A stretch of 64,000 nucleotides of DNA from Ginglymostoma cirratum (lineage: Eukaryota). The notes beneath the pieces were generated by a model. That model worked only from the letters and a program-made list of their open reading frames with translations. It was not told the DNA's origin and made no database searches. Within the stretch, counting starts at the first letter, position 1. Each line of letters opens with the position of its first letter. The DNA lies in assembly GCA_024137785.1 (NCBI GenBank), contig JAHRHZ010000058.1, positions 20,872,534 to 20,936,533 on the forward strand. Reading direction: 5' to 3'. Of the stretch, positions 11,815-61,800 are shown piece by piece. Position numbers and translations under genes: made by a program.

Positions 11815-13272
11815 CATATCCATGATAAAGTGAAATCAGTAGATCTCATATTCAAATTTCAAAAAGATATTCAATAAGGTGTATCCAAAATGGTTAATGC
11901 ATAAGACTTGGGTTCAAGGAGTTGGGATGGATAGAGGATTGGTCAGCAGATGGGAAATAGAGAGTAGGGCAAGTGAGCTGTTTTCAATGCTGTAGCTGGT
12001 GGATTGTTGCAAGGTTTAATGGTGGGGTCTCTGCTATTCACAATCCATATTAGTGACTTAAATGAAAAGACTGAGAGTAATATATCTAATTTTGATGACA
12101 CTGTAAAGCTAGTTGGGAATGCAAACAGTGGTGAGGCCACCGAGATTCTTCAAAATGATATAAACAGATTTAGTTCTGAAGAAAGGTCACTGAACCCAAA
12201 AAGTTATTCTGCTTTCTGTCCACAGATGTTGCCAGACTTCCTGTGTTTTTCCAGCAATTTCTGTTTTTGTTTCTGATTTCCAGCATTTCCAGTTTTTTTT
12301 TCAGCAGGTTTATTGATTGGGCACCAAGGTGAAATGTGAGATTATTCACTTTGGGTTTTGTGTCTGGAAAGCCAGAATATGTTTTTAAAGGCATTAAACT
12401 TGTAAATGTTCATGTTCGGAGACTACTTATACAAGGAGTACAAAAGCTTGCATGTATAACAAGTATTTGGGAGATGAAATAGCTTGTTTGCCTTCATAGT
12501 GAGGGAACTAGAGTACAAGAAAAAAAGACATCTTGCTACAATTGTATGGAGCTTTCGTGAGCCCACATCTAGAATACTGTGTGAAGTTGTAATGAAGAAA
12601 GTGCTCGCATTAGAGACAGTACGTCAAAAGGTTTGCTAGAGTGGTCCTGCAGGTGAGGGTTGTCACGTGGGTAAGGCTGAGTACATTGTTTCTATATTCT
12701 TTGTAGTTTAGAAGAATGCGTGGTAATCTCATTGTATTATGATCAAGATTATGATGGACTTCCAAGACAAAACGCTGAGATGGTTTCCCTTGCTCCAAGG
12801 GTTGATGTGGACTTGTTGGGCCGAAGGGCCTATTTCTACGCTGTAGGGATTCTATGATTCAGACCGAGGAATGTAGAACATCGGGACAAATTTCAGAATA
12901 GGGACCTAAGCTAAGGGGACTGAGATGAGGAGAAATCCCTACAGAGAGTTTTTAACAGTGTGGAGCAGACCCTTCAGCCCAACTTGTCTGCATCAGTCAT
13001 TAAACATTCATCTGTTTTAATCCCATTTTTCAGCACTTGACCTAGACGCCAGCAATTCTTCACTTGAAGGATTGTGTGACTTGGGATTCTCTACCCAGGG
13101 GGTTGCAGATATACCACTGAAACTGAAAGATTTTTGGTGTCTTTGGGACTTGAGATATGGGGAACAGGTGGGAAAGTGAAGTTGAAGCTGAAGATGAGCT
13201 GAGATCATATTGAATGATGGAACAGGCACAACAGACCATGTGGTCTTCCTCTGCTCCTATTACTTACGTCCT
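11815..13272 (+). mobile_element. CR1 LINE 3' half, decayed, interrupted by three younger inserts
   Basis: RT motifs LQGLMVGSLLFTIHISDL..ISNFDDTVKL.G and a CR1 tail at ~13200-13272. Inserts at 12172-12300, ~12799-12860 and ~12955-13052. Confidence 0.85.
12172..12300 (+). mobile_element. Solo Penelope-like terminal repeat nested in CR1
   Basis: agttCTGAAGAaaggtcactgaaccc[a]AAAagtta...ccacagatgttgccagac; reverse-complement homologue of 40322-40427. Confidence 0.8.
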
Positions 13273-26433: not shown

Positions 26434-28279
26434 TATTTCCATTATTTTCTGTTTTTATTTCAGATTTCTGGAATATGTCGCATGTTGCTTTTGCCAAATT
26501 CTAGTTTATATTAAGCTATTGTGTCAAAGCAACAATGACCTTCAATATCTCTCATGTGATCAATCTTCTAAAGTGAGACAGGAGAGTGAAAGCCCCAGAC
26601 TATTTAACTGACCATGTATCGAGTGTCCGTATGGTGGAGGGAGATCATAATCCAATCCTATCCACATCCAATGTCCATGCAGGCACACGTTTCACAAGGA
26701 GCTCCGGATTGTATTCATCAGTGGGAATGTTAGCTGAATTTTCCCCTTTCAAGAGCAAAGATCCTGAGATTATGGCTTTGCCACTAGCTGATCCTAACAA
26801 ACTCAACATAGGCCAAGTGTTGAATCTGGAACCTTCAAATTCCATGTAATTAAAAATTCAGCAAACAAATATAAGAAGATAGGTTTTAAAAATCTGTTTA
26901 AGATAAACTAGTTTAAAGAGAGCAGACACAAAAGTTGAACCTGAGAAATATAAAAATGTTATCTACTCATGGTTGTACACTGAGTGCTTAAACCACAGGA
27001 AACAGCCCACATGTAAAATCTGTTTTTATGACTGTTCTATTGGCAACGTAAGCAATGGTTTGTTGTCATGCTAAATACAAATTCTTGTTATAGGTTGGTG
27101 CCTGGCTTTCTTCATCTGTATTTGAGAGCCCATTGAATTGATGGTAAACAAGGGAACAGAAGGAGAATTCATTGAGAGTTTCTTGGTTACAGATTAAAAA
27201 TGGTTGGTATGTTGCAATGAAAGAATAATTTTTAATTTAATTGTGTGACCAAGAACATTTTGCAATCGGTCAGACGGGTTCACTTATGTCCTTTTTGAAA
27301 ATGGCGTGGAGAGTTACATACATTATAAATTCAAAAACATGACCACATGTTCTGAGGATTTTTTGTTGCAGTTTTTACATGAAAGGATGCTTGTACTGGG
27401 ATGCTTTTCTCTGAGGGGATACACTGTTCAGTGTGTATTTACAGAGAGGTATGAATATTTGATTAAATGAGTCATGGTCTCTGGAGAAATTTAATAACTG
27501 TGGCATACACAGCACGCTCCTTTCACTGTTAACACAGCTGCCAATAATGTCAGTGACATTCAGACCTTCCAAATCTAATATATTCTGTGGAGTAAATTCC
27601 TGGTTACAAAGAGATCTATAAAGTGACACTATTCAGATTTAAGTTTTGAACTATTATCAGACCAATTTACTGTGTCTAATTTGTAAAGATTTTTTTTCCC
27701 TGCGGAAATGAGCAACCATGGGAAAGAGACAGAAGCTTACACACTAAGCACATGACATTTAGAGACATATAACTTCAGTCATTATGTCTAAAAGAAGCTA
27801 ATGGTAGAAAAATAACATTTAAGTACAAACAAAGCCATAGAAACTATTTTTAAGTTTGAAGTTCATAGATAAGCAGGTTTTTTTTATTTAACGTAATTTT
27901 GTTCTCCCTGTTCAGTTTCCACCAAAGCTTCTTTGCTCAAAGTGACCACATCTCATGAATGAATCAAAATAATTACTGCTGGCCAGCTATTACTTCACTG
28001 GGGAGGGATAATCACAGCCAAACCTTTTCCTATCCTCAACTTGAATCTATCCACATGTACCTTCCAGCAGGAATCACTGGATGGTGAACATTAAATTGGA
28101 ATTTAAGGAGTACTCAGCCTACTTAAACTTTATCCTGAAACTGTTAATGTGCACTCTGGGAAGAAAGATAATCTTATGTTTTGAGTGTTGCAAGTTTTAA
28201 AACTCCAAAAAGAAAGGGAGAAACATAAAGTCATAATAGGTCAATTAAAAAATGCTGATTATAAACTACTTCAGAGATT

Positions 28280-28705
28280 ATAGGAACTGCAGATGCTGGA
28301 GAATCTGAGATAACAAGGTGTAGCGCTGGATGAACACAGCAGGCCAAGCAGCATCAGAGGAGCAGGAAGGCTGACGTTTCGGGCCTGGACCCTTCTTCAG
28401 AAATGGGGGAGGGGAAGGGGGTTCTGAAATAAATAGGGAGAGAGGGGGAAGCGGATAGAAGATGGATAGAGGAGAAGATAGGTGGAGAGGAGACCGACAG
28501 GTCAAAGAGGCGGGGATGGAGCCCATCCCCGCCTCTTTGACCTGTCTGTCTCCTCTCCACCGATCTTCTCCTCTATCCATCTTCTATCCGCCTCCCCCTC
28601 TCTCCCTATTTATTTCAGAACCACCTTCCCGTCCCCAATTTCTGAAGAAGGGTCCAGGTCCGAAACGTCAGCCTTCCTGCTCCTCTGATGCTGCTTGGCC
28701 TGCTG
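28280..28705. mobile_element. Penelope-like terminal element folded back as a palindrome (arms 28337-28519 and 28523-28705)
   Basis: 183-nt arms with 7 mismatches and a 3-nt spacer (AGC). Each arm carries CTGAAGA-A-GGG-TCCAGG-(C/T)CC-GAAACGTC. The left end 'actgcagatgctggagaat' is shared with 25997-26030. Confidence 0.9.
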
Positions 28706-30584
28706 ATTATAAACTGCATTAGCTTTACAATATTAAATATTCAATTATTTCCTATGCAAATCTGCAAAACTTTGTAGAGAATGGTTAAGTTCTGGAAATC
28801 ATTTTGAATGTGCCTGGGTGATACCATTGCCAACAATAAGTAACAGTCTTTTTGATACCACTGTGCTGGATTAAGAGTCAGACTGAGAAATTTGAGGAGG
28901 AAAAGCTGAGAACGGCAGGAACAAGAATATTGCAATAAAGTGTATTCAGATTACTTGTCGGTAGAGTCTGGCAGCAGATCATCAGAGATGCGATATGAAG
29001 GCAACATCAGTAAGCCTATACCATCAATGATTTAAATAATGACATCGTCAGTTGGGAAGTGATAGCATATGATGGCCGAGGAATCAGCAGCACTGAGGAA
29101 TTTAGAAAGTGGAATTCAGTTGATCCAGCTATGTTTAACAGCAGCAAGAAACAACCAGGAGAGAAAAATCTGCAGAAATGTTCATCTCTATTGAACAGGA
29201 TATTGAGACAATTTGTGAAAGCTTGACTGCCATACCAGTTGAGAACAGACAGCACAAAAAGATTGGATACAAATGCATAATCCATATAAATTCACCATTG
29301 TTTGGGACAGTGCTTTAAATGAATGAGGTGGCTACTTCATTGCATTGTTTGTAGAAATTTGACACCATACAACGGAAAATAATTTCCATGTTTTTCAGTT
29401 GATGCATGTCTATTTGATTGCCTTCTAAATGCACCCACTGTCATTGTTGTTATCCTTTGTGGATAGAATATCAAAACAAAACTTTCTATTTTGGAAATAT
29501 TCCTTACAAATTGACAAGATTAGCAGAGGCAATCAGAAATTTTAGTGTAGTGTTTCCTAAACTTTATCCTGGTGCCTCCCCAGTCCCCCAATTAATGTCT
29601 CAGATTTTATGTGATACCAGCATGAAAATTTGGGATATATGGATTTTTGAGCTGCATGATGAGGTGGGCTTTGATTCTTGAATGGAGGGGTTGTGTGCGA
29701 TAGGGAAACAGGAGATAGGTGTATGGAAAGTTGATGAAAACATAGGGCTTCTCCAAATATGCAACTTACTTGTACAGAAGCTTTATTTTGCAGTGCCAAT
29801 CAAGTCTCCAAGATCAGTGCATTAGGCCATGCCCATTAACAAAACAAAGTAACTACCTAAGAGGTGGCCATATCTGCCAGAAATCAGTATGAGCTCCCCA
29901 GTAACTACTGCTGGCTCAGAAGTTGCAGATCCAAAATCTCATCTCATTAACTTACTGTGGTTTGCATAGTTTGAAAAGCTCTGTTTAGCATCTACTGACA
30001 AAAACTTGCTTAAATTCTTTGCATCACCATAATTCTTTCATATGTGATGATTGCAAGAACATGTTAACCCATTCCAATCTTATTTCCAAATATAAAGTAA
30101 ATGCCTAGTGCACAGACTTGTAATTTTTTTTTTACATTTGAGATGAACGTTTTCTTTGAATGAGTATATTGACTGTACATACCTTTTGTACTAGGGCAGA
30201 AAGTAAGGCAGCATGAAGCAAACCAAGAAAACAGGAAGGCTGAATCTTCAGCAGTAGCATAGGCTGCCCTAAGCAAATAGTCCAACCTTGTGGCAACTAC
30301 CATCACAGCAGTCCAAACATTTAGCTTGAACAATGGGTTATTTTTATGCGCAAACTGTGGCCAGCAAGAGAAGGATTCCATTTCACTGTTTTTTCCAGTG
30401 CTATCTTTGAACATTGGCAGCGTGAGTCCAGGTGAGGAAGCCATGAAATTGCAGTTAATGGGAGTTCCATCTTCAGATATCCATCAAACCATTTCTGAAG
30501 TTTGCTTAATCCAATAAAATGTAGAACTACTAACAGAATTCTGGAAATGCTTGGCAGGGCAAAAAACATCTAAAAGGAAGGGTC

Positions 30585-52244: not shown

Positions 52245-52600
52245 CTAGAATCTGGTTCTACGGGCACCTGCTACTCTCTGGTACCTTGCTAAATTGACCA
52301 TACCTTTTGCGTGACCTTTGATAACTGGCAGACTGTTTGACTTTAGGAAATCATTTTCAGCTAAACCCAATTCAGTCCTCACCTGATGTGAGGACTGAAT
52401 TGGGTTTACATGCATTTTCCAGCAGGTGTCACTGGATAGCAATTAGAGGCAGAAATACTGACTAATTTTCCCTCTCCCATGTGTACTGAACACAGACAAT
52501 TGCACTAACCCTAACTTCTCCCCAGTAGTGATAAATTGACTAAACAAGATGAAGGACCAAATTCAAGTTTTCCTATATGTACAACTCAGAGCCATGTTAG
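52245..52600 (-). mobile_element. Ancient SINE-like repeat (family B; other copies at ~7575-7760, 23425-23640, 26600-26840, 27980-28090, 41335-41570, 42560-42880, 53380-53710, 58310-58550, 62340-62510)
   Basis: Recurring core 'ggaaaa..agccag.gttcc..ctcctga...tatccagtgac.cctgctggaaa' on either strand. Confidence 0.65.
52362..52408. repeat. Perfect 21-bp inverted repeat with 5-nt loop
   Basis: taaacccaattcagtcctcac-ctgat-gtgaggactgaattgggttta. Confidence 0.97.
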
Positions 52601-61699: not shown

Positions 61700-61800
61700 A
61701 TAAAAAAACCAGAAAAAGCTGGAAATGCTCAGCAGGTTTAGACGCATCTGTGGAGGGATAAACAGAATTAAAGTTTTAAGTCATGACCATTCGTTCCCTG
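61700..61800 (-). mobile_element. Degenerate Penelope-like terminal fragment
   Basis: aaaccagaaaaagctggaaatgctcagcaggtttagacgcatctgtggagggataaacagaattaaagttt is homologous to 40322-40427. Confidence 0.7.

Follow-up and report, generated by a model that had tools for sequence, protein, structure and literature searches.

A near-perfect inverted repeat in the genome of the nurse shark Ginglymostoma cirratum raises the question of whether it is a mobile palindrome in its own right or the end of a known kind of element, and of how its two halves came to face each other. It lies in the window analyzed here, by which we mean the whole stretch of 64,000 nucleotides from contig JAHRHZ010000058.1, and a preliminary description read it as a young, non-coding, Penelope-derived fold-back unit of 369 nt.

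Structure and surroundings of the palindrome

The two arms are reverse complements of 183 nt each with exactly seven mismatches (28383, 28405, 28411, 28419, 28450, 28480 and 28495) and an AGC spacer, just as first described, and pairing ends abruptly outside of both arms. Folding of the palindrome gives a z-score of -30 relative to 100 shuffles. The 15-nt direct repeat TGCTGATTATAAACT that had been noted on both sides is an exact match and constitutes a target-site duplication (Table 1). However, the insert between these repeats is ~433 nt (28268-28700) and not 369 nt, because the left arm has 69 further unpaired nucleotides that belong to the 3' end of the element. In 29 other copies the 3' end matches this unpaired segment, and the 31 nt that lie beside the tail are absent from the right arm. 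At the opposite side, the right arm and the right target duplication overlap, in that the final 5 nt of the former (TGCTG) open the latter. Expressed as distance from the tail end (d), the left arm covers d0-253 and the right arm d249-67, and the family letters of the main arm run on to 28523 (GGCT). The copy has no coding capacity or ORF; its ATG is the one that opens a long frame in the full-length copy L084.

The insertion had been placed ~3.6 kb past the stop codon of ATG4C. A plus-strand gene does indeed have its last exon (ending in NEEFVLL) stop at 24702, 3.55 kb upstream of the palindrome, and a Pfam C54 exon at 20451-20567, which identifies the gene at the level of the ATG4 family. 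Several AATAAA signals lie between this stop and the element. A second ATG4-family gene is located at G000 C86:16906285-16920885, and its exon matches parallel those of the window gene.

Table 1. Features of the insertion, in window positions.
Feature	Positions	Strand	Remarks
Left target-site duplication, 15 nt	28253-28267	.	exact repeat of 28701-28715
Unpaired 3' end of the element	28268-28336	-	PLE tail of ~35 nt (about 28270-28305) plus 31 nt
First codons of the element ORF	28268-28354	-	ATG at 28354; mirror ATG at 28688 on the plus strand
Main arm, a 5'-truncated pLTR in element sense	28337-28519	-	94-97% identity to genomic copies
Minimal type I hammerhead motif	28371-28400	-	predicted cut after 28373; constrained energy -1.8 kcal/mol
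Putative core promoter, outward-facing	28400-28435	-	TATTTAT at 28435-28429, initiator-like A at 28404
3-nt loop at the fold point, over the family micro-hairpin TGG-CT-CCA	28520-28522	.	
Inverted arm	28523-28705	+	atypical end, 67-72 nt from the tail end; 5-nt overlap with the target-site duplication
Mirror putative core promoter, outward-facing	28607-28641	+	TATTTAT at 28607, initiator-like A at 28637
Second hammerhead motif	28642-28671	+	predicted cut after 28669; constrained energy +3.8 kcal/mol
Right target-site duplication, 15 nt	28701-28715	.	exact repeat of the left one

Assignment to a Penelope-like family

The palindrome is almost certainly the 3' end (pLTR, minimal hammerhead and tail) of a 3.5-kb Penelope-like element (PLE) with RT and GIY-YIG domains. 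Specifically, the left arm with its extension is 94-97% identical to the best 40 of 1,586 candidate genomic copies, and the 30-nt hammerhead core occurs without mismatch 8,463 times in the genome. Longer copies carry RT (PF00078, E 2e-7) and GIY-YIG (PF01541, E 2e-5) upstream. Among the 21 frames of longer copies scanned for domains, RT was above the cut-off in one PLE frame and GIY-YIG in one, with weaker matches to these domains in other frames; three strongly matching frames were set aside as unrelated LINEs. The order of RT followed by a C-terminal GIY-YIG is present in contiguous longer copies, and the frames are broken in every copy examined. In copy L084, the pLTR-ORF-pLTR unit spans 3,505 nt; its 628-nt direct repeats lie 3,505 nt apart, and an inverted 5' piece is also present. 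The near full-length stretch (L084:3970-8830) has several stops and frameshifts, and its N-terminal ORF includes an Ala/Thr-rich low-complexity region. L084 also encodes a DKG motif and, before GIY-YIG, a C-x4-C-x2-C linker, both of which point to the Neptune clade, by motif rather than by an RT tree. A Zn-finger-like linker between RT and EN is described as common to Neptune and Nematis (PMC8557442).

The RT, GIY-YIG and pLTR-ORF-pLTR organization of the longer copies bears out the Penelope origin first proposed, and the head-to-head pLTR arms with their 15-nt duplication bear out the view that the inverted end is typical of PLEs. The insertion shows a 30-40-nt tail at one end, an inverted 5'-truncated copy and a target duplication. 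A 30-40-nt tail on one arm, a short duplication and heavy 5' truncation are likewise reported for EN+ PLE insertions (PMC3846280, PMC8557442, PMC2377424); a general scheme of inverted insertions appears in PMC8557442, an example from D. virilis Penelope in PMC2377424, and Adineta Pen2a, as described in PMC3846280, also has head-to-head pLTRs with a palindrome at the junction. Thousands of such PLE stumps exist, and the structure seen at this locus was already described in 2013. Unlike those EN+ insertions, the window copy retains just ~250 nt of the 3' end, folds over a minimal loop, and has a second arm whose end falls ~35 nt before the position usual for tail-less arms.

The Poseidon element of Anolis carolinensis, PAc, resembles the family in that, according to PMC11167929, its hammerhead adjoins the ORF start and a pair of neighboring RT start sites, located within the 5' part of the ORF, delimits its tail. 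There are also differences from PAc, as the nurse-shark family has the Neptune/Nematis Zn-finger-like RT-EN linker and has its ATG just downstream of the motif, whereas in PAc the ATG is at helix II. Non-LTR retrozymes are described as non-coding, pLTR-derived and equipped with a type I hammerhead (bioRxiv 10.64898/2026.07.22.740005), all of which is shared by the window element; this assignment was rejected because retrozymes, as presented there, are head-to-tail tandems whereas the window element is head-to-head and single.

Other PLE-like sequences are present in the window. An older RT/EN remnant, ~64% identical, lies inside the ATG4 gene at 19197-20168 (minus strand). A more distantly related PLE-like family, which has a hammerhead-like motif, is represented by ends at 18697-18801, 40325-40428 and 61718-61776 (the copies at 18697 and 40325 are 90% alike), and further short fragments, from the same family or from related ones, lie at 25984-26028 (a tail piece, 91% alike), 12174-12294 and 47203-47264. 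A near-perfect 47-nt palindrome at 52362-52408 is unrelated to the PLE family.

Copies of the palindrome center in the genome

The preliminary description had further suggested a mobile palindromic non-autonomous family built on this center, to be recognized by a genome-wide count of the central junction. The exact center has one match in the 4.36-Gb genome, so that the same center does not recur. Freeing the loop adds locus L052, and allowing three mismatches in the 35-nt center adds L214, giving two further loci in all. Both are independent insertions with other subfamily letters and with duplications of their own (15 nt in L052, which has a 19-nt inverted arm, and 12 nt in L214, which has a 35-nt inverted arm). 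They fold at, or within 10 nt of, the fold point of the window copy, the register of which recurs in L052. A genome-wide search at three mismatches in 35 nt found no sibling or source of the window center, and a search with the private letters of the inverted arm found only L217, a copy of an unrelated subfamily. The proposed family thus falls away, and a MITE-like palindromic family with the same center and ends at many loci was ruled out since no sibling was found. Near-symmetric centers are present at every position probed (12, 14, 2 and 6 loci) and the palindrome is therefore a point on a continuum.

Two loci on different contigs, L180:1446-1708 and L187:1446-1708, have one center and its private letters in common, at 99.2% identity over 263 nt, and the genome contains exactly two copies of that center. 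Their flanks are unrelated and their outer ends differ; segmental duplication of this pair was rejected as the flanks have no homology. At L203/L204, one center is present twice (L203:1366-1555 and 1969-2158), inverted, 476 nt apart and 98.9% alike. Because the L180/L187 center sits at two unlinked loci, palindromes of the family appear to be occasionally re-copied.

The description of the insertion as young holds only in relative terms. Its arms differ by 3.8%, whereas 38 tailed/tail-less pairs average 7.5%, and a relative that is ~4% diverged in the flank seems to carry the right junction. Contigs of this relative from two runs show 24 differences in 619 nt and reach 19 nt into the right arm, which weakly suggests that the junction is genuine and that the insertion is older than that split.

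Inverted ends across the family

Family-level counts were taken from 93 stretches that together contain the first 100 matches to the core, in genome order, plus best-match loci; 32 of 194 arms with a short or missing upstream flank were left out, and 68 inverted pairs minus five masked ones, one duplicate and the window copy gave 61. The 3' ends of family copies fall into two groups, around d4 and d36. Tailed and tail-less arms occur together in 33 of 39 unmasked genome-order inverted pairs (~49% expected if independent; P = 5e-6) and in 52 of the 61 pairs overall. Of these 52 pairs, 29 have the longer arm on the tail-less side and 16 on the tailed side, and the arms of the other 7 are within 10 nt of each other. 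Duplications of at least 9 nt, mostly 13-16 nt, are present in 39 of the 61 pairs. The two arms of a pair resemble each other more than chance would predict, but occasional differences at transversion markers occur. Specifically, the non-CpG marker at d87 is discordant in 7 of 46 pairs (15% versus 33% expected) and that at d126 in 3 of 31 (10% versus 29%), and there is no excess of likeness at d180. This suggests that the arm templates are usually related and sometimes different, although later gene conversion could also have contributed.

Because a fold-back copy can neither outgrow its template nor gain a tail, most head-to-head pairs fit an origin as two separately primed cDNAs rather than by self-priming. 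This reading agrees with the two-strand nicking and two RT start sites seen in vitro, where the PAc protein is reported to nick and extend both strands, starting at two adjacent RNA sites (PMC11167929). Self-priming has been proposed as the origin of inverted PLE ends (PMC3846280), and their formation is elsewhere called undefined (PMC8557442); the family counts weigh against the PMC3846280 proposal as a general cause. Our search of the literature, largely of open-access papers, found no published account of the family's junction statistics or of the 5'-end peak considered below as RT run-off.

Formation of the palindrome in the window

We consider it somewhat probable that the locus is a single 5'-truncated, non-coding, Neptune-type PLE insertion with a 15-nt duplication and an inverted arm likely derived from fold-back of the cDNA. 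Snap-back as the route to that arm has, in our judgment, about an even chance of being correct, and it is preferred for this copy because the minimal loop and the off-site outer end make it atypical. Under this model, the endonuclease would have nicked both target strands 15 nt apart, and RT would have copied ~253 nt of RNA from the tail end onward. The 3' end of the cDNA would then have snapped back at TGG-CT-CCA with a 3-nt loop, the minimal size for a hairpin, been extended by ~180 nt on itself, and been joined to the other target end via the shared TGCTG.

In favor of snap-back, the inner arm ends differ by only 4 nt across the 3-nt loop, and L052 and L214 fold at or near the same point with their short arms. 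The inverted arm of L052 carries a minor letter of its own copy, and the two window arms likewise share a minor allele (frequency 0.12) and have a likeness rank of 0.07 among 210 comparisons. Near-symmetric loci number 35, of which 28, the window copy included, remain after seven masked loci are left out. Off-site outer ends are seen in 7 of the 27 other unmasked near-symmetric loci versus 1 of the 61 general pairs. Against snap-back, two of the seven arm mismatches are at family-polymorphic sites, as two templates would give, and 20 of the 28 near-symmetric loci have ordinary ends (ten loci were re-examined and four of them reassigned to ordinary). In addition, the off-site arm is the longer one in four of the seven other off-site loci, which snap-back cannot give, and two of the remaining three are the re-copied pair L180/L187. 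The frequency of longer tail-less arms (29 of 52) also indicates that fold-back is not the main route of the family.

A different account, in which the two arms were primed separately, one per target nick, and the cDNAs joined at their 5' ends, is possible but unlikely for this copy. The right primer would have annealed inside the element at UGCUG, which the 5-nt TGCTG overlap fits just as well, and the ends would have met near the same point by chance. As judged by the excess of tailed/tail-less pairs, the discordant markers and the in vitro activity of the PAc protein, this is the family's usual route. Moreover, the window arms differ at two polymorphic sites, and L186 combines an off-site end and a 16-nt duplication with a longer off-site arm. 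However, separate priming requires two rare features at once, the 4-nt symmetry and the off-site end, and it leaves the identical register in L052 unexplained.

It is improbable that the whole unit was copied from read-through RNA of an older palindromic copy, with the right end being the 5' truncation of one cDNA, which amounts to a weak form of the mobile palindrome first suggested. Such re-copying is what the shared center of L180/L187 and the doubled center of L203/L204 argue for, and it would account for off-site ends in either direction. Against it stand the absence of a source or sibling within three mismatches in 35 nt and the recovery of the inverted arm's private letters in an unrelated subfamily copy only, and even the L180/L187 center amounts to just two copies. 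Finally, an assembly fold-back artefact is very improbable given the seven mismatches, the intact 15-nt duplication, the asymmetric outer ends and the family-typical anatomy; among the contigs listed, none of four public runs bridges the center, a gap that proves nothing, and the relative's contigs enter the inverted arm from the right flank short of the 31-nt bridging threshold.

Hammerhead motifs and the 5' ends of family copies

Hammerhead-like 30-mers are present on each strand where first reported, and their sequence features match the motifs of metazoan PLEs. Using the general hammerhead numbering, the motif shows the minimal type I core (CUGAnGA / GAAA / NUH, G10.1-C11.1 and an extra base after A9) together with the palindromic ACGU at 15.2-16.2. 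On the minus strand it consists of CUGAAGA, an extra A, a 4-bp helix II, GAAACGUC and a helix I of 2 bp, and on the plus strand a C>T change at 28659 weakens helix II. Core position 7 varies between A and T (74 and 23 of 99 arms), which the core permits. A helix I of 4-5 bp is not present, as just a U-A and a U-G pair form. Rfam returned no hammerhead family among 62 matches (5 kb) or among five matches (one arm); its miRNA matches were discounted as they are below the gathering score and merely reflect the hairpin. Unconstrained folds do not form the motif, and the 99 arms show no excess conservation of the core. There is also no footprint of cleavage, with 1 of 82 incidental arms ending within 2 nt of the predicted cut. 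The hammerheads would be passengers of the pLTR.

The metazoan PLE hammerheads described in PMC4209133 likewise have CUGAnGA, an extra base before G10.1, GAAA and a palindromic 15.2-16.2, and lack helix III; that study already noted pairs of motifs on opposite strands, separated by 100-700 bp. The shark helices of 4 bp (II) and 2 bp (I) differ from the 7-8 and 4-5 bp given for S. mansoni families, and a 2-bp helix I also occurs in a D. virilis variant (PMC4209133).

The 5' ends of family copies accumulate immediately upstream of CUGAAGA and not at the predicted cleavage site. Specifically, 65 of 126 unmasked arms that reach d128 end at d128-140 (48 of 80 arms picked by the core pattern and 17 of 46 incidental arms). 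About half of the hammerhead-reaching copies in the L086-L178 series end 0-10 nt before CUGAAGA. CCCTAA telomere-type repeats are found at or near 5' junctions at L100:4935-4953 and, upstream of the core, in L128. Among the contigs listed, loose ends fall at the matching place, 28403, in three of four runs from two organisms. The 3.5-kb unit has a single TATA-like motif, followed 31 nt later by an initiator-like A at d134, with the qualification that the pattern was picked after the peak was seen and that initiator-like motifs occur 63 times. Consensus and spacing of TATA and initiator are as generally known. The pile-up possibly reflects RT running off at the start of the transcript. The rival reading, T-rich microhomology, may be its sole cause, but the TATTTATTT run 30 nt further up takes none of the 29 incidental arms extending beyond 140 nt. 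TATA and Inr are reported for the Adineta pLTR (PMC3846280) and a TATA-less internal promoter for D. virilis Penelope (PMC2377424).

The putative promoters face outward and start ~4 nt before each hammerhead, and the hairpin RNA that had been envisaged from transcription of either strand would therefore require a transcript that reads through from outside. If the run-off reading is true, both arms would fire outward and the hairpin would not be made from them. A signature of A-to-I editing in the arms was rejected, since at most one of the seven mismatches fits A>G on a minus-strand hairpin.

Implications

The family-level counts are more informative than the single locus. The combination of tailed with tail-less arms, in which either arm may be longer, and the 5'-end pile-up are genome-scale predictions for the in vitro PLE system described in PMC11167929. 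Tentatively, we propose that the tens of thousands of copies of this family may record the Penelope cycle in vivo. Both nicks would be primed, one per tail boundary and sometimes from different RNAs, and RT from the 5' start site would run off the 5' end of the transcript, leaving hammerhead stubs of 100-135 nt without a ribozyme cut. The palindromes would occasionally be re-copied, and so would be weakly mobile.
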